Part shown: positions 19,315 through 37,109 of the stretch, piece by piece
Numbering within the stretch: position 1 is the stretch's first letter
How the letters are laid out: each line of letters begins with the position of its first letter
From: a candidate division WOR-3 bacterium
GTDB taxonomy: Bacteria; Hydrothermota; Hydrothermia; LBFQ01
NCBI GenBank assembly: GCA_039802605.1
Contig: JBDRWW010000002.1
Coordinates: forward strand, 128,001-192,000
Reading direction: 5' to 3'
Length of the DNA: 64,000 bases
Made by a program: the position numbers and the translations under genes
Notes under the pieces: model-generated
The model's input: the letters and a program-made list of their open reading frames with translations, nothing else
Database searches by the model: none
Told to the model about the DNA's origin: nothing

Positions 19315-21668
19315 TCCCTTTCCACCCGAACCTCCTCAAATACTTCCTTTAACACATCCCCAACGGTTTCGACAAAGACGAATTCAAGCCTGTTTTTCAC
19401 CGTTTGGGGAACATCTTCAAGGTCCTTTTTGTTCCAAGATGGCATTATAACCTTCTTAATACCAGCCCTGTCGGCCGCCAAAACCTTTTCCTTTATACCA
19501 CCAACGGGTAATATCTTCCCCCTTAATGTTATTTCCCCGGTCATCGCAATGTCCGCGGGTACGGGTATGTTTAAGGCCAAGGAGTAAAGGGCAACAAACA
19601 TGGTTATACCGGCGGATGGGCCATCCTTAGGTATTGCCCCGGAAGGTACATGTAGGTGTATAAACCCCTTATCCCAGAATTCCGGCGGAACACCCCTTTC
19701 GGCGGAATACTTTCGGGCCAATGTTAAAGCCGCTTCTGCGGATTCCCTCATAACCTCACCCAACTTACCCGTAAGTTTAAACCCCTTTTCACCCGGTACC
19801 CTTATCGCCTCAACAAAGAGGACCGAACCACCCACGGGTGTCCACGCCAATCCCGTAGCCACACCTACCTTTGCTTCCCTTTCGGCCAGTTCGGGGAAGT
19901 ATTCCGGTTTTCCTAAGAATTCTTCAACATTTTCCGGGGTTATGACAAAATCGCAGGCCTCCCCCTCCTCCGTAACCTTCAGGGCTATCCTCCTAAAAAT
20001 CCTGTTAATCTTTCTCTGCAACTCCCTAACACCCGCTTCCCTCGTGTATTCCTCTATTATCCTCGTCAAAGCCCTCTCATTAAATTCAACCCTACAATCC
20101 TTTAAACCGGTTTCTTCCTTTTGTTTGGGTATTATGAAGTTTAAGGCTATTTGGATCTTTTCCTCTAAGACATATCCGGGTATCTCTATGACTTCCATCC
20201 TATCAAGCAACGGTGCGGGAATGGTTAATGTCGTATTTGCGGTGGTTATAAAGAAAACCTTTGAGAGGTCAAAGGGGAGGTCCAAATAATGGTCTTTAAA
20301 GGAATGGTTTTGCTCCGGGTCTAAAACTTCAAGTAAAGCGGAGGCCGGATCTCCCCTCCAATCGGTGCCGAGTTTGTCTATTTCGTCGAGCATCATAACG
20401 GGATTATTACTACCCGCTTCCTTCAAGGCCATAATTATCCTTCCCGGCAAGGCGCCCACATATGTCCTCCTGTGCCCCCTTATTTCGGCCTCATCCCTAA
20501 CACCCCCAAGGCTCAACCTAACAAACTTTTTATTCAAGGCCCTCGCTATTGACCTACCCAAACTCGTCTTTCCGACACCCGGAGGACCTACAAAGCAAAG
20601 GATGGGGGCTTTACCCGTAGGGTTTAACTTTTTTATTGCTATATACTCTAAAATCCTCTCCTTAACCCTTTCAAGGTCGTAATGGTCTTCGTCCAAAACC
20701 CTCCTCGCGTTGGCCACATCCATGTTATCCTCTGTGCTTTCAAGCCATGGGAGGTCTAATATCCATTCCAAATATGTTCTTATAACATGGTATTCCGGGG
20801 ATGCGGATGGCACCCTTTGGAGCCTCCTCAACTCCGTTTCCGCAGCCTTTCTAACATAATCCGGTAGGGGCTTCTCCTTTAACCTCTTTTCAAGCTCCGC
20901 TATTTCGGACTGTTCATCGGATATTCCCAATTCCTTTTGTATTGCTTTTAGTTGCTCCCTTAGGAAGTATTCCCTCTGCGCCTTCTCCATTTCCTCCTGA
21001 ACGCTCCTTTGTATCTTCTGAGATAACTCTTGCAATTCAACCTCACGAGTGGCGTATTTTAAAACCAATTCCAAGCGCTTCTTTACATCCAATGTTTCCA
21101 AAATCTCATACCTCTCTTCCGGTTTAAGGTTCTGTAAAAGCGACGCCGAAACATCCGCCAACATAGATGGTTTGGGTAAATTTGAAAGGGCTCCAACGGC
21201 TTCCTGAGGTATCTTTTGGTAATCCGCCAACTTCCTCATGGTTTGTAGTAATGCCTCCTTTAAGGGTAGGAGTTCATCATCCGGGTAGTCTATTTCGTGT
21301 AATTCTTCAACCTCGGCCATTATGTAAGGTTCGAGTTGTACCTGTCTTAAAATCTTTATCCTCTTTACGCCGCTTAGGATTATACGGATGTTTCCATCGG
21401 GCAACCTGTTCATCCTCATAAGGATGGATGCCGTTCCTACCGGATATAAATCTTCTATACCCTGAACATCCCTTTCCGGGTCTTTTTGCATAAAGGCGCC
21501 TATGATTTTCGGCTCGGTGGGTGTGGAAAGTACGGAATTTACAAGCCTCTTAGACCTTTCAACCCCAACCAAAACTGGAACCGTTGAAAAGGGGAATATG
21601 ACCCCCCCCTTAACGGGTAAAATTGGCAATTCCCTTGGTACATCAATTTGCTCAAAAGGCACTTGCAT
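19311..21668 (-). CDS. lon: Lon protease (endopeptidase La)
   Basis: GPPGVGKT, RGHRRTYVGA, PKDGPSAG, GGIKEK. Confidence 0.97.
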   Translation of the reverse strand: MQVPFEQIDVPRELPILPVKGGVIFPFSTVPVLVGVERSKRLVNSVLSTPTEPKIIGAFMQKDPERDVQGIEDLYPVGTASILMRMNRLPDGNIRIILSGVKRIKILRQVQLEPYIMAEVEELHEIDYPDDELLPLKEALLQTMRKLADYQKIPQEAVGALSNLPKPSMLADVSASLLQNLKPEERYEILETLDVKKRLELVLKYATREVELQELSQKIQRSVQEEMEKAQREYFLREQLKAIQKELGISDEQSEIAELEKRLKEKPLPDYVRKAAETELRRLQRVPSASPEYHVIRTYLEWILDLPWLESTEDNMDVANARRVLDEDHYDLERVKERILEYIAIKKLNPTGKAPILCFVGPPGVGKTSLGRSIARALNKKFVRLSLGGVRDEAEIRGHRRTYVGALPGRIIMALKEAGSNNPVMMLDEIDKLGTDWRGDPASALLEVLDPEQNHSFKDHYLDLPFDLSKVFFITTANTTLTIPAPLLDRMEVIEIPGYVLEEKIQIALNFIIPKQKEETGLKDCRVEFNERALTRIIEEYTREAGVRELQRKINRIFRRIALKVTEEGEACDFVITPENVEEFLGKPEYFPELAEREAKVGVATGLAWTPVGGSVLFVEAIRVPGEKGFKLTGKLGEVMRESAEAALTLARKYSAERGVPPEFWDKGFIHLHVPSGAIPKDGPSAGITMFVALYSLALNIPVPADIAMTGEITLRGKILPVGGIKEKVLAADRAGIKKVIMPSWNKKDLEDVPQTVKNRLEFVFVETVGDVLKEVFEEVRVERD

Positions 21669-21669
21669 T

Positions 21670-22053
21670 TTACTTTACCTCTATTTGTATTGTCCTCTTT
21701 TTCTTTGGTATCCTAATTTCCAAAAGCCCGTTTTCGTATTTACTCGTTATCCCATCCACATCTATATCCGCGTTTAAATATAGCCTCCTTTCAAAGGGTC
21801 CGAAATATATTTCCGCTATGTGGTAAATCCTGTTTCCCGGACCTTCCGGTTCCGGTCTTTTGCCGGAAATTATCAATGTCCCGTTATCGTATAAAACTTT
21901 TAAAGAGTTTTTATCCGCCCCTCCAACGGCCATATATACCACAAATTCGTCATCCGTTTCGTAGGCGCTTATGGGAGGTTTATAAACCCTATACCCAACC
22001 CTTGATATGTTTCCAAAAAACTCTTCAAACTCTTCAAAGGGGTCCTTAAACAT
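21670..22053 (-). CDS. Hsp20/alpha-crystallin small heat-shock protein
   Basis: EIYFGPFERR, SKYENGLLEIRIPK. Confidence 0.9.
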   Translation of the reverse strand: MFKDPFEEFEEFFGNISRVGYRVYKPPISAYETDDEFVVYMAVGGADKNSLKVLYDNGTLIISGKRPEPEGPGNRIYHIAEIYFGPFERRLYLNADIDVDGITSKYENGLLEIRIPKKKRTIQIEVK

Positions 22054-22244
22054 TACTTTAACCCCAAACCCGCCAAAACCTTTATTGCGTCCCCTTTCTT
22101 TAAGTATGCGGCTTTCCTTAGTCTCCTCTTTCTCGCCTTACTCTTTTTAGGCCCCAAATTGTGCCTCCTACCGCTCCTCTGGTGTTTCACCTTGCCATTT
22201 GCGGTAATTTTAAACCTCTTTGCTATGGACTTCTTGGTTTTCAT
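22053..22244 (-). CDS. rpmI: 50S ribosomal protein L35
   Basis: MKTKKSIAKRFKITANGKVK...RRHNL..K...RKRRLR. Confidence 0.95.
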   Translation of the reverse strand: MKTKKSIAKRFKITANGKVKHQRSGRRHNLGPKKSKARKRRLRKAAYLKKGDAIKVLAGLGLK

Positions 22245-22252
22245 AAACGGTA

Positions 22253-22284
22253 ATTCTAAGGCCGGAAAAAAACCGTTATATAAT
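22253..22284. promoter_or_regulatory. Divergent -10 boxes for rpmI (-) and Argonaute (+)
   Basis: Minus-strand TAGAAT at 22253-58 (8 nt before ATG 22244); plus-strand TATAAT at 22279-84 (9 nt before ATG 22294). Confidence 0.6.
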
Positions 22285-22293
22285 ACCCCGTTT

Positions 22294-24327
22294 ATGCCGA
22301 GAATTAACGCTTTTAAGATTGATATTTCAAAAATCCCGAGTATAAATTATTACAGGCTTAACGAGGGGTTTCAGAATGATGCGGAAATGTTTTCATTTTC
22401 GTGGAGAAACGGTGGAATTTTTTGGGAGGATTATTTTTTAACACCCTTAGAGTATAGTGAAATACCCGATAAAGACCGTTTAAAACAAGTTAAAAGTTTT
22501 CCCTTTCTTTCCAAAGATTTGAACACGGAAACCCGCATAGATTTACTGCACCGTTATACCTCCTTTAAACTCAAAAAATTGGGCGTTTTGAAAAAGATAA
22601 AAAACAATATAAAACAAAGCCTTTTAGAAAGGGGGATAAAGGAGGTTATAGGTAGGTTTGTCTGGGATGTTGAGGTCCTTGACGATGTAATATTTAACGG
22701 CGAATTTTACTATGTCCTGAATTTTAGAATTAGAATATTCTTTAACCAAAACCTATGGGATTATGTGGGGAGAAATCCGGAAAGGTTAAACGGTTTAAAA
22801 GGCAAGGGTTTTAGGTTTAAATTGAACCCAAAGTATATATACTACATTGAAAAAGTTTATAAGGATGAGGCGAAAAGCAAGGAAATATTAGATTACCTAC
22901 ACTTTAAGTATCCGAAATATATGCAAAAAGTTAATCTTGACGAAAATCAGCCGATAATATTGGGTTCCCGGGGTTATCGCAAATACCCGTATTTACCCCA
23001 GCTGTGTTATTTATCCGCTAAAATGGATGAAATTGATGGATGGGAGATAAGGGAATTTAAGAATCTATGGATTTTAACGAATCAACATAGGTTTGAGATT
23101 ATAAGATCTGCATTTGAAAATAGCACGAATAAACGACCCGAGATTTTAGAGGTTAATAGCAGGATATACCCAAAGCCGGAAATTTTGGTAAATCAGAAGG
23201 ATGGGAAGATATTGGGGGAAGGTTTTAGACCTTACTATGTTCCCAAAATCCTACCAAAGGAATTGGATACATACATACTTATTGATAAAAATCTGGGCTA
23301 TAACTCCGTAAAAGATTTCGTTGAGGATTTCTTAAAAGCCTTTAATTCAATTTCCCAAATCCCAAGGTTAAGGGTTGTAAAAAGGATAGAATTCTCCCCG
23401 GAAAAAATAATAGATGCGGATAAAGAAACGGAAGTACGCGATCCCCTGGCGTTTTCATTAATCATATTCCGCATTAAATACACATCAAACAACGGGGAAA
23501 AACCCTATGAAAGTATTAAAAGGTTGCTATTCAACAAAAACATAATTTCGCAGACCTTGATATACTCCAACATAAAAGAAAACAACATGGAAATAATCCT
23601 TAAAAACCTCATCGTTCAGAGTATGTCAAAGTTGGGTATAAGGGCTTTTACATTAAAAAGCGAAATCCCCTACGATTATACTATTGGGGTTGATGTTGGG
23701 AGGACTTGGAGGGGAAATTTGGGAGTGGGTGGTTGTTCGGTTGTGATAACGGGCGACGGTGTGGTCAAAAGGATAGTTCCGATTCCTCAACCCACAACCG
23801 GAGATACTTTAAAAATCTCGTGGTTTTTGGGAAGGATACATGCAAAGGATAGGCTTTCGGGTAAAAGGGTTTTGGTTTTGAGGGATGGGAATTTGAGGAA
23901 GGAAGAATTGGATGATTTGTATCATTTTGTTAAGGATTACGGGGTTGAAGTTTTAACATATATGAATGTTGTAAAAAGGCATAGGGTTTTTATGGTTTCG
24001 GAGGAAAACGGGGAAGGGGTTGTATTTGGCGATGGTTCAGGGCTTTTATTACCGCACGGAAGGGACTATAAGGAGGTTGGTCCAAAGCCCATAAGGATAA
24101 AGGACAAGTATGTATTTGATAAAGGGGGATTTCAAAAGGTTGAAGTACTCTATCAGGATTTAAAGGTTTTGAACGATTTGACATATTTGGTATTTTCAAT
24201 GCTTCCCTTAAAAAAGACCAAACTGCCCGCACCCATAGGCCTTGCGGATAAGTTCGTTAAGGCGTTGGGTAAAAACTGGTCGATAAGGGAGGAACTTTTG
24301 GAAAACGGGTTGCTTTATTTCCTGTAA
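22294..24327 (+). CDS. ago: Long prokaryotic Argonaute (N-PAZ-MID-PIWI), MjAgo-like, 677 aa
   Basis: PIWI: IGVDVG, LRDG, LPAPIGLADKFVKALGKNW...LLYFL; MID: YESIK..ISQ..SKLG; PAZ-side motifs DENQPII, PYLPQLC; ATG 22294 follows TATAAT. Confidence 0.95.
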   Translation: MPRINAFKIDISKIPSINYYRLNEGFQNDAEMFSFSWRNGGIFWEDYFLTPLEYSEIPDKDRLKQVKSFPFLSKDLNTETRIDLLHRYTSFKLKKLGVLKKIKNNIKQSLLERGIKEVIGRFVWDVEVLDDVIFNGEFYYVLNFRIRIFFNQNLWDYVGRNPERLNGLKGKGFRFKLNPKYIYYIEKVYKDEAKSKEILDYLHFKYPKYMQKVNLDENQPIILGSRGYRKYPYLPQLCYLSAKMDEIDGWEIREFKNLWILTNQHRFEIIRSAFENSTNKRPEILEVNSRIYPKPEILVNQKDGKILGEGFRPYYVPKILPKELDTYILIDKNLGYNSVKDFVEDFLKAFNSISQIPRLRVVKRIEFSPEKIIDADKETEVRDPLAFSLIIFRIKYTSNNGEKPYESIKRLLFNKNIISQTLIYSNIKENNMEIILKNLIVQSMSKLGIRAFTLKSEIPYDYTIGVDVGRTWRGNLGVGGCSVVITGDGVVKRIVPIPQPTTGDTLKISWFLGRIHAKDRLSGKRVLVLRDGNLRKEELDDLYHFVKDYGVEVLTYMNVVKRHRVFMVSEENGEGVVFGDGSGLLLPHGRDYKEVGPKPIRIKDKYVFDKGGFQKVEVLYQDLKVLNDLTYLVFSMLPLKKTKLPAPIGLADKFVKALGKNWSIREELLENGLLYFL

Positions 24328-24331
24328 TTTA

Positions 24332-24357
24332 TGTAGTGAAAAAATATTTACACTACA
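24332..24357. promoter_or_regulatory. Inverted repeat, candidate operator upstream of hsdM
   Basis: TGTAGTG-N12-CACTACA; right arm ends 16 nt upstream of TATAAT 24374-79. Confidence 0.45.
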
Positions 24358-24388
24358 AAATTTGAATCAACCTTATAATACCCGTACT

Positions 24389-26074
24389 ATGGAACCGAGG
24401 TTTTTGAAGGCTTATGAAATGCTGTTCGCAAATTTTGGGGAGAGCGAATTTACATATGAGGATGCGGAAAGCGTGCTCGGAAAGGATTTCGCCAATATTA
24501 GAGAAGTTATATCCCAACTAAAACGGGAAAAATTAATAAAGTATTTGGGGAGATACGAAAACGATAACAGAATAAAGAGGTTTAAACTGGTACCCTTAGC
24601 CAAGGTGGTAAATTCCAGAGGGGAACTTATAAGCATACTTAAACAATCCGCCGATCTTATAAGGACAAGGGTGGATTATAGGGTTTTGTTAATCCTCCTA
24701 TTCTACAAGTCCATAAGCGACAAGTGGTATAAAACCGTTGAGTATTATAAAAGGCAGGGATATAACGAGAATACCGCCAAGGATCTGGCCGATGCGGATG
24801 TTTTACGCCTACGGGATAAAAACGGGGACGAAATAACATGGCATAGTGCGGGAAATAATTCCCAAAAATTGGTTGAAAACCTTTCAAAGTTGGAAGACCT
24901 AAACGGTGATGAACTGAAAGGGTTTAAGAGTTTGCTCCAAATAACTCAAATCGCCGATCTGGTGAATAACTCCGGTAATATCTCCATATTTTCGCAAATA
25001 ATACAACTTTTCGGCAATATTGACTTTTCCAATTATCCTTACGATGTTCTTGGAGATGGATACGAGTGGATACTCGGATATTTTGCCCCTCAGAAAGCCA
25101 AAGAGGGGGAAGTTTATACACCCAAAGAGGTCAGTAGGCTGTTGGCCGAAATCCTTGATCCAGAAACCAATTACGATATACTTGACCCCGCAAGTGGTTC
25201 CGGTTCTTTATTAATAGAGATGTATAAAAAGATGGCGGAAAAAGGCGAACCCAATGGTATGCTTTACGGTCAAGAGGTAAATAGCGTTATGGCGATTATT
25301 TCAAGGTTAAACTTTAAACTCCATAATATTACCAACTTCAAGATATATGAAGGCGATTCCTTATTATCTCCCCAGTTTGAACATGCGGATATAGTGGTTG
25401 CAAATCCGCCTTGGAATCAGGACGGATATAACGAGAAAAATCTCGGAAATATAAGGGATATATACTATTATGGCTTTACAAATAAAAAATCCGCCGATTG
25501 GGCTTGGATACAGTTGATAACTTACTACGCCAAGAAAAGGGCGGGTGTTATCATAGATACCGGGGCGCTTACAAGGGGTGGAAGGGAAGGAAAGATAAGA
25601 AGGAAATTTATAGAATCCGGGATAATAGACGCTGTAATCCTTTTACCTGAAAAGTTGTTTTATAACACCCAAGCACCCGCATGCATAATAATTTTTAACA
25701 AGGAGAAACCTAAGGACAAAAACGATAAAATTCTGTTCATAAATGCGAGTTATCTATACAAATCCCACCCAGATGTTAAAAAATTAAACATATTGGGTGA
25801 GGATAACATAGAGGAAATAGTGGATGCTTATAACGGTTATTATGAGGGAAGGGAACTTCCGGAATTTGCAAGGGTTGTATCAATTGATGAAATCGCAAAT
25901 AACAACTATAACCTTAATGTTTCCCTATATGTTCATTTGGGTGAAGAAAATGAAAGGGTTGATATTTTTGAAGAGTTTATGAACCTTATGAGTTTAAACG
26001 AAGAGTACGAGGCACTGTTTAATAGGATAAGCGGGTATATGGAGGAAATAAAGAAATTGGAGGGTGAGATATGA
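24389..26074 (+). CDS. hsdM: Type I R-M methyltransferase with extra N-terminal wHTH-like domain
   Basis: LKQSADLIR, GEVYTP, DPASGSG (motif I), NPPW (motif IV), LPEKLFYNT, NYNLNV; ATG 24389 follows TATAAT. Confidence 0.93.
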   Translation: MEPRFLKAYEMLFANFGESEFTYEDAESVLGKDFANIREVISQLKREKLIKYLGRYENDNRIKRFKLVPLAKVVNSRGELISILKQSADLIRTRVDYRVLLILLFYKSISDKWYKTVEYYKRQGYNENTAKDLADADVLRLRDKNGDEITWHSAGNNSQKLVENLSKLEDLNGDELKGFKSLLQITQIADLVNNSGNISIFSQIIQLFGNIDFSNYPYDVLGDGYEWILGYFAPQKAKEGEVYTPKEVSRLLAEILDPETNYDILDPASGSGSLLIEMYKKMAEKGEPNGMLYGQEVNSVMAIISRLNFKLHNITNFKIYEGDSLLSPQFEHADIVVANPPWNQDGYNEKNLGNIRDIYYYGFTNKKSADWAWIQLITYYAKKRAGVIIDTGALTRGGREGKIRRKFIESGIIDAVILLPEKLFYNTQAPACIIIFNKEKPKDKNDKILFINASYLYKSHPDVKKLNILGEDNIEEIVDAYNGYYEGRELPEFARVVSIDEIANNNYNLNVSLYVHLGEENERVDIFEEFMNLMSLNEEYEALFNRISGYMEEIKKLEGEI

Positions 26075-26334
26075 GGGTATCCAAAATTAAGGAAAACAAT
26101 TACTCCGAGGCTTATGTAGGAAGAACGAGCAATGTTAATAGGAGAATAAACCAAATCCGACGAAGTATTGGAAAGTTTAAAGATGTGTATATAGTTTATG
26201 CAACCAAAAATTTAGAACATGCCAAAAGTATGGAAGGCGAGATGAGATCGTTATCCATTCTAAACCAATCAGATGGTTCCGATGGTTCAAAAGGCCAACC
26301 ACCTTATTATGTATATGTCGCTTTTAGGAGGTAA
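26071..26334 (+). CDS. Small GIY-YIG-like protein (87 aa)
   Basis: AYVGRTSNVNRRINQ, AKSME, C-terminal YYVYV; ATGA overlap with hsdM, SD upstream. Confidence 0.55.
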   Translation: MRVSKIKENNYSEAYVGRTSNVNRRINQIRRSIGKFKDVYIVYATKNLEHAKSMEGEMRSLSILNQSDGSDGSKGQPPYYVYVAFRR

Positions 26335-26337
26335 AGT

Positions 26338-27543
26338 ATGAATGGGATAAGGTTTTATAAGGAATTGGATTTTAAGGATACGGAAGTTGGGAGGATACCG
26401 AAGGATTGGGAGGTTAGGAGGTTGGGGGAGGTGGCAGAAATAAAAAATGGAAAATCAGATGTAAAGGATGCGGTTCCGGGTGGGTTATATCCCTTCTTTG
26501 ATCGTTCAACCGTAGTAAAAAAGAGTAACAGATACCTTTTTGATACGGAAGCCGTAATAATACCGGGTGAAGGGTATAAATTCATACCAAAGTATTATAA
26601 CGGTAAATTTGATTTACACCAAAGGGCTTATGCTTTATTTAACTTTGATATATCAACTTATGCCCCATATGTCTTTTACGCTTTACAATGGGATAAAATT
26701 CAAAACATCCTAATACGCCGAGCGGTTGGATTTACAGCATTATCGCTAAGAAAACCTATTATTCAAAACTTCCCCATCCCCCTCCCCCCTCTCCCAGAAC
26801 AGAAAGCCATCGCTAAGGTTTTGAGCGATTTTGATAAGCTTATTGAGGTTATAGACAGGAAAATAAAGGCTTTGGAAAGGATAAAGAAGGGTATGATGGA
26901 TATTTACTTTACGAGGGGAGTGTTTGAACACAAAGAATTTATTTACAGCAAGGAACTGGGGCATGAGATACCGAAGGATTGGGAGGTTAAAAAATTAACA
27001 GATTTGGCCGATCTGGAAAGGGGTAAAGAGGTGGGTTCTAAAAATTACAATAGGAAAGGGGAGGGAATAAGGTTTATAAGGGTTGTTGATCTTTCGGGTG
27101 CCCGTGATGATGTAGTTTATACGACTTCAAAAGATGTAAAAATTTGTAAAAAAGACGACATTTTAATAACCCTTGATGGGAGTGTAGGGATTGTAAGAAT
27201 GGGATTTGAAGGGGCTTATTCTTCGGGTATAAGGAAGGTGGTAATAAAGGATAAGGAGAAAGTTTTAAAGGATTTCCTATTCTTCGCTTTACAGGGCGAT
27301 TTGGTTCAATATGTTATAAAATCCTATTCTCGTGGAACTACAATTCAACATGCCGGCGAATCCGTTAAACATATTCCCATCCCCCTCCCCCCTCTCCCCG
27401 AACAGAAAGCCATAGCCGACAGGTTAAAATCTATTGATGATTTGATTGAAAACCGCAAAAGAATGAGGGAAAGTTTGGAGAGGATGAAAAAGTGGTTTAT
27501 GGGGAAATTGCTTATGGGTGAAATAAGGGTTAAGGAGGTGTAA
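26338..27543 (+). CDS. hsdS: Type I R-M specificity subunit (two TRDs)
   Basis: Two copies each of IPKDWEV and IPLPPLPEQKAIA; AGGAGG SD. Confidence 0.95.
   Translation: MNGIRFYKELDFKDTEVGRIPKDWEVRRLGEVAEIKNGKSDVKDAVPGGLYPFFDRSTVVKKSNRYLFDTEAVIIPGEGYKFIPKYYNGKFDLHQRAYALFNFDISTYAPYVFYALQWDKIQNILIRRAVGFTALSLRKPIIQNFPIPLPPLPEQKAIAKVLSDFDKLIEVIDRKIKALERIKKGMMDIYFTRGVFEHKEFIYSKELGHEIPKDWEVKKLTDLADLERGKEVGSKNYNRKGEGIRFIRVVDLSGARDDVVYTTSKDVKICKKDDILITLDGSVGIVRMGFEGAYSSGIRKVVIKDKEKVLKDFLFFALQGDLVQYVIKSYSRGTTIQHAGESVKHIPIPLPPLPEQKAIADRLKSIDDLIENRKRMRESLERMKKWFMGKLLMGEIRVKEV
26394..26989 (+). repeat. 23-bp perfect direct repeat at the 5' side of each hsdS TRD (26394-26416; 26967-26989)
   Basis: GATACCGAAGGATTGGGAGGTTA twice. 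Confidence 0.9.
26773..27413 (+). repeat. 38-bp direct repeat (1 mismatch) at the 3' side of each hsdS TRD (26773-26810; 27376-27413)
   Basis: CCCATCCCCCTCCCCCCTCTCCC(A/C)GAACAGAAAGCCAT twice. Confidence 0.9.
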
Positions 27544-27545
27544 AG

Positions 27546-30500
27546 GTGTATAAGGAGAGGTATGATTACAAACATATAAAGGAAGAGTTGAAAAAACTGG
27601 GTTGGCAGGAGAATGTTGGGGAAAAGGAGGGCTTGTTTATAGATAATGATTTAAGGCAGATATGCAAAATCAACGGGGTTTATGAGCATTGCGATAAACT
27701 TTTAGATGAGATAAAAAAGGCGTTTGAAAATAGTGATGATAATGGGTTTTTGCTTATGCTTCAAATGGGCTTTAATTCCAAGGTTTTAAACAACAGGGTT
27801 ATAAAACTCATAGATTTTGATGATTGGAGGGAAAACATTTTTAGGTTTTCACAAGAGCATAAGTTTGAGGGCTATCCGAGAAATATAATTCCGGATTTTG
27901 CGCTTTTTATAAACGGGATACCGGTGGTAATAATAGAGGTTAAGAAAACCAGAGGAGAGGATAAAGTTGAAGAGGCCGAGGATCAAATTGAAAGGTATGA
28001 GATGTATTCGCCAAAACTGTTTAAAAGCGTTTTCTTGGGTATAGCATATTCAAAAACAAAGAGATATGCCGCCACATACCCAAACCATACCCAGAAACCT
28101 TTTAATAAACCCTTTCAGGAGTGGAAGGATGAGATAAGCAAAAATTCTAATATATTTGAGATTTTAGAACCCACCAGACTTTTAAGAATCCTCAGGTATT
28201 ATACAATACCTTTAAAAAACGGCACAAGGGTGGTTCCCAGATATATGCAATTTTACGCGGTTGAAAAGGTGGTGAATGAAAGGATTATCCCATATCTAAA
28301 CGGTAATAATTATAAAAATAAAGGCTTGATATGGCACTGGCAGGGAAGCGGAAAGAGTTGGGAAATCGTATTTTTAAGCCGTATATTTTTACAAGATTAC
28401 AGGGAAAAATATACGGATGTTTTTATCGTGGTTGATAGGTTGGAACTGGAAAGCCAAATACTTGATGAATACTTCAATAACATTTATGGCGGAATTATCC
28501 CATACGAGAGAATTGATAATAGGTATAGTTTGAACAGAATTTTACAAAGGTTAAAGGAAAAAGAAGAGGGTAAAAGTATAACGGAATCCAAGGTTTGGAT
28601 TGTCATGCTTCACAAATTTGGAGGAGAAGGAATCGGGAATATTACAGAAATTCGGCGGAAGCACATATTAATACTTAGGGATGAGGTTCATCGCTCCGAA
28701 TACGGCATACTTGCGGATAACCTACACGGCATTTTCCCAAATGCTATAAAGGTAGGTTTCACCGGAACTCCAAACACCAAAAACGATAAAAACACATTTG
28801 AAGCATACTCTTATCCAAATGAAGGGGAATTCTATCTCCACAAATATTTTGTGGGGGATTCAATTGGAGATGGATATACATTACCAATAGTTTGGATGTC
28901 GGTGGAAAACGAGAATATAAAATTACCGGAAGAAAAAACAAGGGAAATCGTTAGGAAAATAATAATCGGGGATATACCCGAAGAATCTTATGAAGAACCC
29001 GCAAACATAACCTTAAAGGATTACCTAACCTCACCCAAAAGAATACAAAAAGCGGCTGATTACATATTACAAAGGATAGAAGAAGATACGGAAAAATTTA
29101 AATTCAAAGCCTTTGTTGTGGCTCAAAACAGGTATGCGGCCGTTATGTTTTGTAGAATGTTAAGGGAAAAACTCGGACATGAAAAGGTAGGAGTGGTATT
29201 TACCGGTTCCGGAAGCGTTAAAGTTGCCGATTGGCAAAGGGAAATAGATGAGTTTATAAATCAAGAGGAAAAAACCAACGGAAAAAAGTGGGATGAGATA
29301 ATAAGGGATAGAAAAAGGAGTTTTAAGGATGAAAACAGTCCGTTAAAGGTTTTAGTGGTTTCGGATATGCTATTACAGGGATACGATGCGCCAATATTAA
29401 AGGTTATGTATATTCATAAGGTTATGAGTGGGCACACACTATTACAGGCCACCGCCCGGGTGAATAGACCGTATAAAGGCAAAAATAAATCCTTTGGTTT
29501 GGTGGTAGATTTAACCGGAATACTTTTAAGTGAATACATTGATACCCTCAGGAATTATGAACTTTACAAAGAGGACATAAGCGAGGACATACTTAAAAAC
29601 CTGTTTATTAGTTCTGACGAAAAGTTTAACGAATTTCTCGGTAGTTTTGAAAACTTAAAAAAGGAGTTAAACGATATATTAGCGCCCATCGGCTATAATT
29701 ACGAAAAACTAAAAAGTGAATGGAATAATTTGGATGAGAAAGAGGTTAAGCGATTGGTATTTTGGATTTTTTCAAATTATTGGGAAATTTTTGCAAACAT
29801 TAAGGAAACTTTAAGGACTTACAAATCCATAGGCGCATATCCCAAAAAGAGGGAATACGCAAGGGATGTAGAATTTTTGGAAGAACTGTTTAATGAATTA
29901 AGAGGCTTACTTAACTCCAAGAAGAGAAGGAGAATAAAAAACTTAAAGTTAGAAATTCTTGAAATACTAGAAACCGAACTCAAACCGGGGGGATTGGCCT
30001 ATATTGATGAAAGCATAGACAAAATCCTAACGCCCAAGTTCCCCGAAAAAATCATAATAGCCAATTTCTTATTAGTGGAAATGGAAAAATATCAAAGGGA
30101 AAAAGTGAAAACTCCGCTTCACTACGAAGTGATTAGAAACCTCAAATCTTTAATAAAAAGGATCCAAACCCTTCAAGAGGAAAACGCCAGACTCATCCTT
30201 GAAATCATTCTATCAAAAAGCGAAAAAAGATTAATAAGTCAATTAAAACAAACCCAAGATAAGAATTTGAGGGGGATTTTAATGCGGATAAGAAACATAT
30301 GGTTTTATGGAAAACTTATTCAAAAGGGAAATATATCCGAAGCGGAAGCCCTTGCATATACTATAGTTAGGAAATTTATAGGGAGAAAAGCCAAAAAAGT
30401 AATGAAAGATTTAATTTTAATATGCGAAAAAATCCATAAAAGGCGGGATAAAGCGGAAAAGATAACCCCAGAAATAAAAAAGCAATTGGAAAGGCTTTTA

Positions 30501-30611
30501 ATAATATCGGGATACAAACAAAATAGAAACGAGATTTTACAAAACATTGAGCAATATATAACTGATTTTTATGGATGGAAAAGCTTTAAGAAAACTCTTG
30601 GAGGAAGTTAA
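27546..30611 (+). CDS. hsdR: Type I R-M restriction endonuclease/translocase subunit
   Basis: IPD..FINGIPVVIIEVK nuclease, QIERY, WHWQGSGKS, DEVHRS, GFTGTP, LLQGYDAP, QATARVNR. Confidence 0.95.
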   Translation: MYKERYDYKHIKEELKKLGWQENVGEKEGLFIDNDLRQICKINGVYEHCDKLLDEIKKAFENSDDNGFLLMLQMGFNSKVLNNRVIKLIDFDDWRENIFRFSQEHKFEGYPRNIIPDFALFINGIPVVIIEVKKTRGEDKVEEAEDQIERYEMYSPKLFKSVFLGIAYSKTKRYAATYPNHTQKPFNKPFQEWKDEISKNSNIFEILEPTRLLRILRYYTIPLKNGTRVVPRYMQFYAVEKVVNERIIPYLNGNNYKNKGLIWHWQGSGKSWEIVFLSRIFLQDYREKYTDVFIVVDRLELESQILDEYFNNIYGGIIPYERIDNRYSLNRILQRLKEKEEGKSITESKVWIVMLHKFGGEGIGNITEIRRKHILILRDEVHRSEYGILADNLHGIFPNAIKVGFTGTPNTKNDKNTFEAYSYPNEGEFYLHKYFVGDSIGDGYTLPIVWMSVENENIKLPEEKTREIVRKIIIGDIPEESYEEPANITLKDYLTSPKRIQKAADYILQRIEEDTEKFKFKAFVVAQNRYAAVMFCRMLREKLGHEKVGVVFTGSGSVKVADWQREIDEFINQEEKTNGKKWDEIIRDRKRSFKDENSPLKVLVVSDMLLQGYDAPILKVMYIHKVMSGHTLLQATARVNRPYKGKNKSFGLVVDLTGILLSEYIDTLRNYELYKEDISEDILKNLFISSDEKFNEFLGSFENLKKELNDILAPIGYNYEKLKSEWNNLDEKEVKRLVFWIFSNYWEIFANIKETLRTYKSIGAYPKKREYARDVEFLEELFNELRGLLNSKKRRRIKNLKLEILEILETELKPGGLAYIDESIDKILTPKFPEKIIIANFLLVEMEKYQREKVKTPLHYEVIRNLKSLIKRIQTLQEENARLILEIILSKSEKRLISQLKQTQDKNLRGILMRIRNIWFYGKLIQKGNISEAEALAYTIVRKFIGRKAKKVMKDLILICEKIHKRRDKAEKITPEIKKQLERLLIISGYKQNRNEILQNIEQYITDFYGWKSFKKTLGGS

Positions 30612-30894
30612 GGAAAAACTGGGATTAAAGGATAAGGTTTATTTGAGGGTAAAACCTTTAAAAAGATCAATAGCAATTATATCGCTTAAAACCAAGAGAA
30701 TAACGATAAACAAAAACATATTGAACATATTCACAAAGGACGAAATAAAATACATCTTGGCGCACGAACTATTACACCTCAAATACGGGAAAACCCACAC
30801 CTTGGAGATGGATCGGGAACTTGAAAACCTCTTTGGAAAAGATGTAAAACCGTCAATATTAAAGAAAATCAAATCGTTAATCCAATCCTCTTAG
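30571..30894 (+). CDS. Small HEXXH metallopeptidase-like protein (M48/YgjP-type, R-M associated)
   Basis: ITIN...EIKYILAHELLHLKY..H; overlaps hsdR 3' end. Confidence 0.8.
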   Translation: MDGKALRKLLEEVKEKLGLKDKVYLRVKPLKRSIAIISLKTKRITINKNILNIFTKDEIKYILAHELLHLKYGKTHTLEMDRELENLFGKDVKPSILKKIKSLIQSS

Positions 30895-32188
30895 AAAAAT
30901 CCGAATATATCAAACCCTGAGGATCATACTTAGCCCTTATTTCCATCCACCTCTTTGCGTTTGGATACATATCAAAAAACCTTTCCTTGGTTAAAACCGC
31001 ATCCTTTGTTAAATAAACCCTTCCCCCAAACTTTATTACCTTATCCGTTAAAGCCTTTAAAAATTCAAACAAACCACCCCTTATCGGGAAATCAAGGGCA
31101 AGGGTCCAACCCTCCATACCAAAGGCCAAATAACCATCCTGCTTACCCATCTTCTTTAAAACCGCCAAAAAGGAATTCCCTCCAAAGCCCACAATATCGG
31201 AGAATATTTCCTTTAAACCCGCATCGTCGGGGACGACAAACTGAAATTGGACAAAACCCCTCTTCCCATAAGCCCTATTCCAATTTAAAACGGAATCCAA
31301 GGGATAAAAAAACCTTTCGTAATCAACAACCCCCCAACAATCCGGATGGGTTAAGTAATAAAACTGGTTAAAAGCCTTTACCGTCCAATCGCTTAAAACA
31401 AAGTCCGGAAGATAAAAGGGTACATTTATCTTAGTCTTACCCAAAAACATTAAAGGATTGCTTTTTAAATCTTTGGGTAAATCCGAGAGTTTTGCATGCT
31501 CGCCAAACATAACAACACCCCTACCAAAGTTTTTACCCCTTGAAAGGCAGTCTATCCAAGCAACGGAATATGTGTATTTTGGATCGTTTTCCTCAAAGGT
31601 TGCCAACATATGGTCTAAATCCTTAACCCTAACACTCCTATAAAGGATATAAGAGGTTTCAACCCTTCTGAGTTTTATTTTTGCATCCAATATAAAACCC
31701 GTTAAACCCATACCCCCAAGGGTAATGTAAAACAATTCGGCATTTTCGTCCCTAGTGCAATAAACCCTTTCCCCACTCGGAATGATTAGATTAAAACCCA
31801 AAACATAGTTTGATATTGAACCCTCCTTGTGGTGGTTTTTCCCATGTACATCGCTCGCAATCGCGCCACCTATGCTAACAAACTTTGTGCCGGGTGTTAT
31901 GTAGGGAAACCAACCCCTTGGTAAAAAGTATCTCAGAATATCCTCAAATGTAGCACCGGACTCAACCCATAGTATTCCGTTTTCCTCATCAAAATCCAAA
32001 AATCTGTTCAAGTATCCACTCTTAATCACAAAATCCGATAAAGACTGATCCGCATAACTTCTACCCATCCCCCTAGGAATACTACCCTTGAAAAATTCAA
32101 AATTATTAATTGCAAATGGATAAAGAACCTTACAATTCCTTACCGGATAATTACCCCAACCGCTCAACCTTTCTATTTGTACCTGCAT
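30869..32188 (-). CDS. FAD-binding oxidoreductase (DprE1-like)
   Basis: RGMGRSYAD, PGTKFVSIGGAIASDVHGKNHH, SFLAVLK, GRVYLTKD. Confidence 0.88.
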   Translation of the reverse strand: MQVQIERLSGWGNYPVRNCKVLYPFAINNFEFFKGSIPRGMGRSYADQSLSDFVIKSGYLNRFLDFDEENGILWVESGATFEDILRYFLPRGWFPYITPGTKFVSIGGAIASDVHGKNHHKEGSISNYVLGFNLIIPSGERVYCTRDENAELFYITLGGMGLTGFILDAKIKLRRVETSYILYRSVRVKDLDHMLATFEENDPKYTYSVAWIDCLSRGKNFGRGVVMFGEHAKLSDLPKDLKSNPLMFLGKTKINVPFYLPDFVLSDWTVKAFNQFYYLTHPDCWGVVDYERFFYPLDSVLNWNRAYGKRGFVQFQFVVPDDAGLKEIFSDIVGFGGNSFLAVLKKMGKQDGYLAFGMEGWTLALDFPIRGGLFEFLKALTDKVIKFGGRVYLTKDAVLTKERFFDMYPNAKRWMEIRAKYDPQGLIYSDFSKRIGLTI

Positions 32189-33299
32189 TCCCCAGTTTTA
32201 TAAGATTTTTCGGGGTTTATGGAAAACAAAAACGATGCTATCAAGGCCTGTAATGATAGTATTAACCAAGCACCCCTGTTAAAGTTTTCAAATAAAAGGC
32301 CACCCCAACTGGGTCCCAAAGAATAACCCATACCCTGGAAGGTACTCCAAAAACCCATATAAGCCCCCAATTCTCCCTCGGGTGCCCTATTGGATGCGGA
32401 GGCCATAATAACCGGAAAAACGAACATCTCACCTAGTGTTATGAAAACTACGGCAAAGATTAAATGCGTATAGTTTTGTGAAAGGAATAGGACAATATAC
32501 CCCAAAGCAAACAATATTCCACCGCTTACAACCGAAAGGGTATAACCCAGTTTTTCCAATAGCTTTGTTATAGGGAGTTGGAAAAGGATTATTAAAAGCC
32601 CGTTTAAACTGAAAAGATAGGCAACCATATGCTTTGGTATATCCAAATCTTTTACGGCAAACAAACTGAAATTACTCGTAAGTTGGGAGGATAGGGTAAA
32701 TACCAAAACGGAAGTTATGGAGAAACCGATGAAGGAGTAATCGGGAAAAACCATTTTAAAACTCCTAAGTCCCGTATGCCTTTTAATCTCCTTTAAAAAC
32801 AAAGTGAAGATTATTGCAAGGAAAATTCCTATGGATGATGCCAAGAATAGATATACATAAATGTACCGATTGCCCAACCGCCGTTTATCGCAATCCTCAC
32901 CAAACTGAAAACCCTAACCCTATCATCCGAAATATCGGCAACATAGGAATCGGCCACGGGTAAAAATAAGGAAAATCCAAGGGATGTTAAGAATGTGGCC
33001 ATAAAAATATAAGGCAAGGGGAAGTTTAAAGATACAAAAATCGCAAGGAATACTAGCATCAAAAAACGAAAGGAAAGTATGAACCTCAGGAGGATAACCC
33101 TGTCCATTATATCTGCGAGATTTCCCATAAAAATCCTTAAAAATGTAGCCACAAACACAGCAGAGGTTATAAAAATACCTATGTTTAGTACCGAAAGGCC
33201 CCTATCGTTCAAGTATAGTGGTATAAAGGGCCAAGATAAGGAAAAGCTAACCGATAACAAAAACCGTATAAATGTTATAGCATAGAGTTCCCTTTTCAA
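32173..33299 (-). pseudogene. MFS transporter split by a frameshift near 32865
   Basis: N-half (33299-32829; GNLADIMDR motif A, ...INGGWAIG) continues in another frame (YIYVYLFLASS...; 32877-32173). Confidence 0.7.
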
Positions 33300-36151: not shown

Positions 36152-36215
36152 ATACGGTTATTCTACATCCGATAAAAATTTTATCCCGCATTGAACGGGA
36201 ATATAATTCCCAATT

Positions 36216-37109
36216 ATGTTATCGGCACCGGTACTGATATTGAAGTCTTTTTCCTTTTATTCGGACAGCGTTGAAATGGTTTTAAAATCCCAGTTGCAGG
36301 GAATGGCCCAAGTTTTTGATTGGAAGAAAAGCGCAAAGGGTTCCCCGGAAGATTTTTATAAAAATCTGTGGGAAAAAACAAAGGATAAGTATTTGGCGGT
36401 TGTTGTCCTTGGAGATGAGCCTTTACAATTCGCAATGAAATACATAAAGGAAAAACCCGTGATATATGTATATAACTATCACCAAATGGATACGCTTTTT
36501 GTTCCTAAAAACTTCATAGGGGTCTTTGGTGCAATCTCGCCGGTTTTACATTTGGAAAAGATGATATGTGCCTTTGAAGAGGGGAAGATCTTGGGAATTT
36601 TAATATATAGAAACGAATGGGAGGTTTTAAGGGATGTTTTTGAAAAGGCTCCAAATGTATCCGGTAAAAATCCCATAAACGAAATACACATAAGGCTGAT
36701 AGATTACCCAACGCAAATACAAACGGCATTAAAGGATTTGAAGGACTTTGGTGTTAAAGTGGTATGGATACCCCCAACATCTTTATTAAACTTCGGGAAA
36801 TATTCGGAGGAAATAGCGGATTATTCTAAAAAGTTTAAAGTTGGGGTATCCTCTTATGATGTGTCAAATGTTCGCGTGTGGTCGGTATATGCGTGGCAAC
36901 CCTCACCCTCGGATATGGGAAGTTTAATACTTGAAACCCTATACGAAATTGATAAAGTTTTAAAAGAAAGGGAAAACCCTACATTTCCCAAGGTAAAGGT
37001 GCATTATATATTTTCGGTCTCATCGGGTATTCCAGCATTAAACAAAACCCTTGCAAACAAATTAAAGTTGAAAGTATCGGAGTCGTGCTATTTTAAGCAG
37101 GTTTATTAA
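36216..37109 (+). CDS. Putative ABC substrate-binding-type (periplasmic binding fold) protein
   Basis: VVVLGDEPL..KPVIY, IGVF, VVWIP pattern; TATAAT 8 nt upstream; no clear signal peptide. Confidence 0.45.
   Translation: MLSAPVLILKSFSFYSDSVEMVLKSQLQGMAQVFDWKKSAKGSPEDFYKNLWEKTKDKYLAVVVLGDEPLQFAMKYIKEKPVIYVYNYHQMDTLFVPKNFIGVFGAISPVLHLEKMICAFEEGKILGILIYRNEWEVLRDVFEKAPNVSGKNPINEIHIRLIDYPTQIQTALKDLKDFGVKVVWIPPTSLLNFGKYSEEIADYSKKFKVGVSSYDVSNVRVWSVYAWQPSPSDMGSLILETLYEIDKVLKERENPTFPKVKVHYIFSVSSGIPALNKTLANKLKLKVSESCYFKQVY

Follow-up and report, generated by a model that had tools for sequence, protein, structure and literature searches.

A long-A Argonaute and a type I restriction-modification system in a strain-variable bacterial defence island

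The DNA analyzed here, a stretch of 64,000 nucleotides that we call the window, carries a prokaryotic Argonaute (pAgo) gene, ago, immediately upstream of the genes of a type I restriction-modification (R-M) system. We consider it likely that these are two self-sufficient defence modules lying side by side, co-located and co-inherited in an island, and not a dedicated coupled machine. One module would be a stand-alone MjAgo-like long-A Argonaute with N-PAZ-MID-PIWI organization, presumably using small DNA guides against invader DNA; the other would be a type I R-M system, methylating the cell's own DNA and cutting DNA that is unmethylated. Each would begin at its own leaderless promoter, both would be inherited, gained or lost together in the source lineage, and their pairing would be an instance of the usual tendency of defence genes to cluster around type I R-M loci. 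Cooperation between them would probably be generic: the modules could act as layers of defence, and DNA ends made by R-M could join the pool from which any long-A Argonaute draws guides.

This reading follows from the intactness of both modules, their separate promoters, a single indel that spans them, R-M linkage restricted to 3 of 11 context groups, an unclustered R-M label on the Argonaute tree, a swap of partners between two near-identical Argonautes, and the finding of no HsdR above the family cut-off in any of five genomes that carry the Argonaute without adjacent R-M genes. It also follows from the breadth of the HsdM subfamily, which has 3664 homologs at E<=1e-40, against 63 representatives of the Argonaute family. 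The original prediction had proposed an Argonaute-restriction coupled system and named plain defence-island co-location as its fallback, and the fallback is the better-supported reading.

Extent and setting of the island

The ago gene and hsdMSR form one island (22265..30867, no strand assigned), gained or lost in the source lineage as a single block. Contigs from three DNA runs (X8, X10 and X11), belonging to three studies, join position 22264 to position 30868, with 8603 nt missing and 18 other letters in their place; therefore, the entire ago and R-M block is one presence/absence polymorphism. Filled-site and empty-site forms co-occur in the same hot-spring samples, and in the closest genome (G002) the contigs end at 22298 and resume at 30868. 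The island, about 8.6 kb long, has a GC content of 36.8% (0.368) vs 41.3% (0.413) for the genome, which places it in the lowest 1.4% of 1467 genomic segments of 8.6 kb each and confirms the A/T-richness that had been noticed by eye.

The island is set between rpmI and a gene for an FAD-binding oxidase. On the left, rpmI (ribosomal protein L35; 22053..22244, − strand) is followed by Hsp20, Lon and PriA, all assigned by family searches, and this synteny is conserved in all four same-genus genomes (4/4). Past rpmI the same genomes diverge, with ArgRS in two of them (G001 and G004) and NADH dehydrogenase and CTP synthase in another (G003). On the right, the oxidase gene (30869..32188, − strand), also assigned by a family search, has a counterpart whose 92% identical protein starts a contig of G002.

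No tRNA was found within 10000-45000, no Rfam family within 20000-33000, and no flanking direct repeats at the island junctions, and nothing longer than 9 nt in the island matches the 18 letters that fill the empty site. A pair of 20-nt repeats (D13) lies 33-42 nt inside the boundaries and was judged to be a chance match. Searches for relatives on mobile carriers found none in 72,556 plasmids and none in viral contigs.

The Argonaute and the restriction-modification genes

The ago gene (22294..24327, + strand) encodes a protein of 677 aa; its start is placed at the ATG at 22294, as a longer TTG frame from 22159 would overlap rpmI. The protein aligns end to end (E 4e-69, residues 3-677 against 9-713) with PDB 5g5t/5g5s, which we take to be the Argonaute of Methanocaldococcus jannaschii (MjAgo), and it matches the Piwi family PF02171 (E 1.6e-15; 57.6 bits vs a cut-off of 28.9) and PADLOC pAgo models, in agreement with the prediction of a long Argonaute. 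Alignment of residues 3-677 to this solved full-length Argonaute recovers the N-L1-PAZ-L2-MID-PIWI architecture, the Pfam PAZ match alone (Ago_PAZ_arc, 23.6 bits) being under its 27-bit cut-off. The motif of the MID 5'-end pocket, Y-K-Q-..-K as defined in a passage of PMC6299218, is present, with Y405, Q420 and K446 invariant and K409 nearly invariant among 20 sequences. By homology, the window protein is thus classed as an MjAgo-like long-A pAgo with a canonical 5'-phosphate pocket.

The active site departs from the canonical DEDX. The catalytic tetrad, D467-D504-D531-D652, reads DDDD and not DEDD, with all four carboxylates retained; at the glutamate-finger position, 504, Asp occurs only in the window Argonaute and its closest relative, P0002 (2 of 20 sequences), and Glu occurs in 18 of the 18 others. 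That relative is an intact protein of 678 aa with 75% identity. The lineage sits on a long stem branch of the Argonaute tree (1.26) and has changed 4 of 48 conserved columns, three of the four at or adjoining catalytic residues, and the conserved H-Y preceding the fourth catalytic Asp is altered. According to a passage of Ryazansky et al. (PMC6299218), 21% of long-A pAgos are without the canonical tetrad. A literature search for Asp at the glutamate finger returned irrelevant matches only (the anti-DDDDK tag), and we make no claim of absence from it. The DDDD protein may slice only weakly and profit from a nuclease encoded next to it. This Asp is the most unusual single feature of the locus, and it bears on the tolerance of the Argonaute active site.

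Downstream, all on the + strand, lie hsdM, a small gene, hsdS, hsdR and a gene with an HEXXH motif, in the layout originally predicted and with the spacings then given: 61 nt separate ago from hsdM, and the remaining genes overlap or lie 2-3 nt apart. The first, hsdM (24389..26074), encodes a 561-aa N6-adenine methyltransferase (N6_Mtase, E 1.4e-95) whose ATG at 24389 is backed by an identical N-terminus, MEPRFLKAYEML, in a homolog of 82% identity (P0071). Its SAM-binding DPASGSG and catalytic NPPW motifs are intact, and it scores 183 bits against TIGR00497, below the cut-off of 242.75. It overlaps by 4 nt (26071-26074) the small gene (26071..26334; 87 aa), which Pfam places weakly near T5orf172/GIY-YIG. 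The prediction of a GIY-YIG-like protein is only weakly borne out here, as T5orf172 barely clears its cut-off (20.4 bits vs 20) and GIY-YIG falls below it (17.3 vs 22.6). The sole relative found, P0190 (134 aa, 53% identity), has about 47 N-terminal residues that the window gene is without.

After 3 nt follows hsdS (26338..27543), whose product matches Methylase_S (E 1.4e-50) in two stretches corresponding to two target-recognition domains; the gene has internal conserved repeats, D1 and D2, and occurs as alternative alleles in public runs. A further 2 nt on, hsdR (27546..30611, start codon GTG at 27546) encodes a restriction/translocase subunit of 1021 aa (TIGR00348, 478 bits vs a cut-off of 284.55) with HSDR_N, SWI2_SNF2, ResIII and T1R_D3-like domains, an intact PD-(D/E)xK motif (D117..E133-x-K135), and intact GSGKS and DEVH motor motifs. 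Overlapping hsdR by 41 nt, the last gene (30571..30894; 107 aa) encodes a short YgjP-like/M48/M56-type metallopeptidase with an HELLH sequence, and the final 27 nt of the gene extend past the boundary of the island into the 3' end of the oxidase gene. A YgjP-like gene is also found 3' of hsdR in the other two Argonaute-linked R-M loci. The features of HsdM, HsdS and HsdR are those of the complete type I R-M system that had been predicted, and the operon from hsdM through the small gene, hsdS and hsdR to the HEXXH gene looks intact.

Both ago and hsdM are preceded, 9 nt ahead of the ATG, by a -10 box followed by ACCC (TATAAT-ACCC; 22279..22284 and 24374..24379, + strand) resembling a leaderless promoter. 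Across the genome, an ORF of 80 aa or longer has its start codon 5-14 nt after 94 of 201 TATAAT-NCCC sites, with a peak at 7-9 nt, vs 1 of 95 and 5 of 38 for control motifs. The two genes thus each have an exact copy of what is predicted to be the genome's standard leaderless promoter motif, and the -10 box earlier assigned to hsdM is real. No terminator-like site is predicted in the 61-nt gap between ago and hsdM, which leaves room for co-transcription by read-through. Contigs of a metatranscriptome (X14) cover the 3' end of hsdM, hsdS, the start of hsdR, Hsp20 and Lon and none covers ago; transcript start, strand and level cannot be read from such contigs, and the library may contain DNA.

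Linkage across the Argonaute family and competing explanations

A type I R-M system adjoins the Argonaute in 3 of the 11 context groups, and eight have none nearby; the linkage across homologs that the original prediction named as a check is missing from these eight. The three arrangements differ. The window has ago upstream of hsdM; in G011 the Argonaute lies between hsdM and hsdS (hsdM-ago-x-hsdS), with DarT-Macro between hsdS and hsdR; in the third, the Argonaute is convergent with the R-M genes in an archaeal island that also holds McrBC and GmrSD. (A 128-aa gene that follows ago in G011 was taken by eye for a GIY-YIG-like one and then rejected: its BLASTP match to P0190 has E 33, and Pfam gives no match.) The Hsd proteins at these loci are non-orthologous: HsdM from L012 has 37% identity (172 bits) to that of the window, and at least 120 other clusters are closer to the latter, at 44-52% identity and at least 479 bits. 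On the Argonaute tree the type I R-M label requires three changes, a count as low in 260 of 500 shuffles, and it shows no clustering. In this small family, Argonautes and type I R-M loci came to adjoin on at least three separate occasions.

Two near-identical Argonautes have different neighbours, a type I R-M system in L016 vs a DUF1156/DUF499/SNF2 system in L025. HsdR above the family cut-off occurs in none of the five Argonaute-bearing genomes that lack R-M adjacency (0/5), and it was detected in 18 of 61 related genomes. Across the clade, the type I R-M genes are not a conserved neighbour of the Argonaute of the kind that marks a dedicated pAgo-effector system. In L012 and L016, a frameshift at a homopolymer run splits the R-M-linked Argonaute; both shifts are in MAG contigs and may stem from misassembly. 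The closest relatives of the window's Argonaute (P0002, 75%), HsdM (P0071, 82%) and small protein (P0190, 53%) are all singletons, each on a 4298-bp contig; from this equal size, and not from the DNA itself, the three appear to lie on one contig with their order kept.

Block inheritance, the order apparently kept at 75-82% identity and the three unions tell against plain co-location, in that they exceed what random placement, as distinct from a baseline for defence genes at large, would give. These same observations are what remains of the predicted coupling, set against no family-wide linkage, non-orthologous partners and separate promoters. They lend themselves to a functional synergy without a complex, in which the ends that HsdR makes in unmethylated invader DNA, once processed, would supply invader-derived Argonaute guides, methylation would thereby bias the Argonaute between self and non-self, and selection would keep the pair together. 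Engineered I-SceI breaks do feed the guides of CbAgo, as described in a passage of bioRxiv 10.1101/2020.03.01.971358. We nevertheless think such synergy unlikely: eight of the 11 context groups have no type I R-M nearby, Argonaute relatives occur in genomes without HsdR above the cut-off, partners are interchangeable (L016 vs L025), and any nuclease-made break would serve equally well, so adjacency of the Argonaute to R-M is not needed. A more elaborate version is a co-adapted two-layer system, in which ends made by restriction of unmethylated invaders would load a slicer-attenuated DDDD Argonaute with invader-specific guides, methylation would discriminate self, and selection would keep the whole as one mobile cassette and would have brought Argonautes and R-M loci together repeatedly; we regard this as quite doubtful.

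Physical coupling, with the DDDD Argonaute acting as a guide-directed sensor that recruits or activates HsdR or the small GIY-YIG-like protein, in the manner of long-B or short pAgos that lack catalytic activity and act with effectors, strikes us as very improbable. The finger Asp confined to the window Argonaute and P0002, the altered columns in and around the active site and the long stem branch would suit it, and a passage of PMC6299218 finds nucleases commoner in operons of long-A pAgos without DEDX (53% vs 45%). However, the three catalytic Asp and the finger carboxylate are kept, and the Argonaute may therefore still be fully active; its gene has a promoter of its own and is not among the translationally coupled hsd genes, the window's copy of the small gene has lost part of its N-terminal region, and the HsdM/HsdR subfamily is widespread without an Argonaute. 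Least credible to us is that the Argonaute is fading and hitch-hikes with a functional R-M cassette: its open frame of 677 codons, its 75% identity to an equally intact 678-aa relative, the 44 of 48 conserved columns retained and the host-type promoter before ago all oppose decay, whereas its fast-evolving lineage with an altered active-site neighbourhood and the split Argonautes of L012 and L016 would favor it, with the caveat on misassembly given above for these two.

Comparison with known systems

How long-A Argonautes source guides and discriminate self from non-self is only partly understood, and a natural cassette that joins an Argonaute to methylation-based restriction would offer a practical setting in which to study R-M-primed Argonaute immunity. 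Using MjAgo residue numbers from a passage of PMC8464042, window Y405/K409/Q420/K446 align with MjAgo Y442/K446/Q457/K483, and window D467, D531 and D652 with MjAgo D504, D570 and D688. Unlike MjAgo, the window protein has Asp for the glutamate finger E541 and G-L for H685-Y686, comes from a bacterial host and belongs to a lineage on a long branch.

Among systems in which a nuclease could furnish guides, the cyanobacterial Argonaute with ACE1, a Cas4-family enzyme (PMC12094033), is likewise a long-A pAgo whose locus also encodes a DNA nuclease with a possible part in making guides; that pair is described as conserved and cooperative, whereas the window's R-M partner is not conserved across the Argonaute family. 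The CbAgo work (bioRxiv 10.1101/2020.03.01.971358) offers the generic route from endonuclease-made double-strand breaks to Argonaute guides, but with I-SceI and RecBCD in E. coli, neither a type I R-M enzyme nor the Argonaute clade of the window. That type I R-M components can stand beside pAgos is already known, HsdS (orthogroup og_11) being listed among proteins of pAgo operons in a passage of Ryazansky et al. 2018 (PMC6299218); the passages of that survey give no mechanism and no consensus pAgo operon, and four of its supplementary files contain zero occurrences of og_11 or Hsd.

The nearest parallel is with type I R-M systems themselves, which often contain embedded defence genes (passages of bioRxiv 10.1101/2024.01.29.577857 and PMC11411939). 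Like prrC in EcoprrI, tgvAB in Vibrio VPI-2 and the genes surveyed by Payne et al. 2024, the window ago is a second, independent module at a type I R-M operon; unlike them, it stands upstream of hsdM and outside the operon, under a promoter of its own, and nothing indicates a PrrC-like sensing link. An ago between the hsd genes of one operon, the PrrC/TgvAB arrangement, is found in G011 and not in the window. Passages of Payne et al. (bioRxiv 10.1101/2024.01.29.577857) name no Argonaute among the R-M-embedded genes. For now, the locus is an unremarkable example of a type I R-M site at which defence genes have accumulated.

An Argonaute and type I restriction-modification genes in one variable island

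The locus is confirmed as one strain-variable island, in which a long-A, MjAgo-like Argonaute accompanies an intact type I restriction-modification (R-M) operon. Reading frames at 22294–30894 bear out the originally described order, strand and spacings of six genes on the + strand: ago (22294–24327, 677 aa), hsdM (ATG at 24389, after a 61-nt gap), a small gene (87 aa, overlapping hsdM by 4 nt), hsdS (starting 3 nt past the small gene), hsdR (starting 2 nt past hsdS), and a HEXXH gene (107 aa, sharing 41 nt with hsdR). Searches with Pfam, NCBIfam and PADLOC models return a Piwi/PAZ Argonaute together with a full type I R-M set, so the claim of a complete R-M locus holds; HsdM keeps its DPASGSG and NPPW motifs, and HsdR its PD-ExK nuclease, GSGKS and DEVH motifs. 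Calling the small gene ‘GIY-YIG-like’ was partly right: a T5orf172/GIY-YIG likeness is present but weak, and the protein lacks about 47 N-terminal residues of its one relative, P0190. The HEXXH gene product is a short YgjP-like/M48-type metallopeptidase, and a YgjP-like gene lies 3' of hsdR in both other R-M loci examined. Housekeeping genes on the opposite (−) strand border the block, with PriA, Lon, Hsp20 and L35 to the left and an FAD oxidase and MFS transporter to the right. The A/T-richness noticed by eye is real: block GC is 36.8%, vs 41.3% for the 1.65-Mb genome, placing the block within the bottom 1.4% of 8.6-kb windows (n = 1467).

In Logan contigs from three DNA runs of three studies, 22264 is joined to 30868; 8603 nt are missing, and 18 different letters stand in their place. 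Island contigs are also present in two of these three runs, so filled and empty sites coexist in nature, and ago and the R-M genes occur either both or not at all. In the four runs compared, no joint deleting ago alone or R-M alone was reported. In G002, the closest genome (flank proteins 92–98% identical), one contig stops at 22298, just within ago, and another starts at 30868. The proteins most similar to Ago (P0002, 75% identity), to HsdM (P0071, 82%) and to the product of the small gene (P0190, 53%) are singletons, each from one 4298-bp contig, and their added lengths fit a contig of that size; we infer that the gene order is shared there.

Several smaller features were seen in and beside the island. 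The final 27 nt of the HEXXH frame (30868–30894) lie beyond the island edge and overlap the convergent FAD-oxidase 3' end; flanking DNA thus encodes the C-terminus of the HEXXH protein, whose gene seems to have been truncated at the island junction. hsdS contains, within 26394–27416, two internal repeat pairs (61 and 52 nt). Contigs in public runs share the ends of hsdS and differ between about 26402–26439 and 27373–27405, indicating alternative specificity alleles in the population, and one joint runs from 26434 to 27382. The MFS transporter gene (32173–33299) is broken into two overlapping frames of 234 and 156 aa. In X8, an empty-site run, one contig has 28 additional letters after 32858, so the window copy has probably lost 28 nt and, with them, its reading frame.

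As originally noted, hsdM has its own -10 box: TATAAT-ACCC stands 9 nt upstream of its ATG and, likewise, of the ago ATG. Genome-wide, 94 of 201 TATAAT-NCCC sites have a start codon (of ORFs ≥80 aa) 5–14 nt downstream, peaking at 7–9 nt, vs 1/95 and 5/38 for two control motifs; examples, start included, are 22279–22296, 24374–24391 and 36202–36218. The motif is probably the organism's usual leaderless promoter, which suggests that many of its genes are expressed as leaderless mRNAs. The island would then comprise two modules, ago and the hsd operon, each under a separate promoter. No terminator-like site was seen in the 61-nt gap between them, so read-through may occur.

Neighbourhoods of related Argonautes

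Ago relatives came from 61 related genomes (match in 6), a phylum sample (7/272 genomes), GTDB at one genome per species (6 loci), and metagenome contigs (29 loci). Short or one-ended contigs (L013, L020, L022–L024, L027–L029, L031, L033, L036, L044, L045, L048) were left out, and loci identical in sequence or synteny were merged into 11 context groups, assigned from Pfam scans and tblastn with three Hsd query sets. Type I R-M genes lie within 10 kb of ago in three groups: the window group, with ago upstream of hsdM; that of the related genome G011 (hsdM-ago-x-hsdS-DarT/Macro-hsdR-YgjP); and that of an uncultured archaeon (L016), where ago is convergent with hsdM-hsdS-GmrSD-AAA_15-hsdR-YgjP and McrBC is nearby. 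Two groups, L025 and L046 (the latter readable for only ~1.1 kb downstream of ago), adjoin a different methylase/helicase system. The remaining six have neither system beside ago: five (L014, L017, L019, the g4 group and G001/G004) have housekeeping neighbours, and L042 has IS605 TnpB, resolvase and HEPN genes.

The different system, an R-M-like set beside Argonautes of two further lineages, consists of a DUF1156 methylase, a DUF499 protein and an SNF2 helicase with NOV_C (L025:8633–18355; L046:148–7947). Directly 5' of the archaeal Argonaute is a 110-aa gene (L016:9656–9988; L025:5931–6254; 82% identical between loci), weakly UPF0102/YraN-like (22.3 bits vs a cut-off of 23.6) and showing a D..ExK pattern; L025 also has, immediately upstream, a string of HerA, Mre11, Rad50 and NurA genes. 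The G011 operon (L012) encodes a 410-aa DarT-Macro fusion (L012:5564–6796) between hsdS and hsdR, near the embedded Argonaute. The ago genes of L012 (about 2470, T5) and L016 (about 10830, A6) are each frameshift-split at a homopolymer run, reflecting either real decay, phase variation or assembly error. Within the genus, 38 intergenic residues of G003 (L009:422–535), among unrelated genes, are 47% identical to the Argonaute C-terminus and may be a remnant. The sister species G001 and G004 carry a different, distant pAgo (714–723 aa, Piwi E 2e-23; L062:9741–11885, L063:13–2184) in housekeeping surroundings, with R-M not found nearby.

Coupled system or defence-island clustering

The original prediction was of a coupled Ago–R-M defence system, with plain defence-island co-location as its fallback. 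Coupling is only partly borne out. In its favour, ago and the R-M genes co-travel in this lineage and apparently in its nearest relative, and pairings of this kind have arisen repeatedly; the comparison across the family points the other way. Linkage is not kept among the homologs, type I R-M being confined to 3/11 groups. On a quick IQ-TREE phylogeny (MID-PIWI, 42 sequences) the type I R-M label requires three changes and is unclustered, 260 of 500 shuffles being as low. L016 and L025, with different systems, have near-identical sister Agos. HsdM of G011 shares 37% identity (172 bits) with window HsdM, to which at least 120 other clusters are closer (44–52%, ≥479 bits); on these scores, the Hsd partners of the different Agos are non-orthologous. 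None of five genomes with an Ago relative but without adjacency has an HsdR above the family cut-off, and G015 (94% complete) and G061 gave no HsdR match whatsoever. At E≤1e-40 the subfamily of the window HsdM numbers 3664 members, far too many for the small Ago family to accompany, since 1.84 billion proteins yielded only 63 cluster representatives of the latter at E≤1e-3. Judged from these sequences, type I R-M linkage is not an Ago-family property. The family-wide evidence fits the fallback reading, in which defence genes cluster into islands at type I R-M loci, and any Ago/R-M synergy is likely generic.

A targeted literature search found no described functional link between Ago and R-M. 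In published work, HsdS is among the orthogroups of pAgo operons and a consensus operon was not found (Ryazansky et al., 2018, PMC6299218), embedded genes are frequent in type I R-M systems (Payne et al., 2024, bioRxiv 10.1101/2024.01.29.577857), with prrC and tgvAB as worked examples (PMC12707154, PMC11411939), and engineered I-SceI breaks feed CbAgo guides (bioRxiv 10.1101/2020.03.01.971358).

The Argonaute protein

The genome has one Piwi gene. Its product is closest to the solved structures 5g5t, which we take to be MjAgo, and 5g5s (E 4e-69, residues 3–677 aligned); other archaeal-type Argonautes follow, and the Thermus protein is distant. The 5'-end pocket residues (Y405, K409, Q420, K446) are conserved and three catalytic Asp are retained. 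The glutamate finger is Asp here and in P0002 (75% identity); the 18 other homologs in the alignment all have Glu. Of the 48 columns in which those 18 show at least 85% conservation, this lineage, on a long stem branch (1.26), has altered four (E504D, N633V, H649G/Y, Y650L), three at or beside catalytic residues. Slicing activity may be retained or lost, and the Asp-for-Glu finger is the sole feature meriting a bench test. The MjAgo catalytic tetrad, as published (D504/E541/D570/D688; PMC8464042), agrees in position with the numbering aligned to the window Ago.
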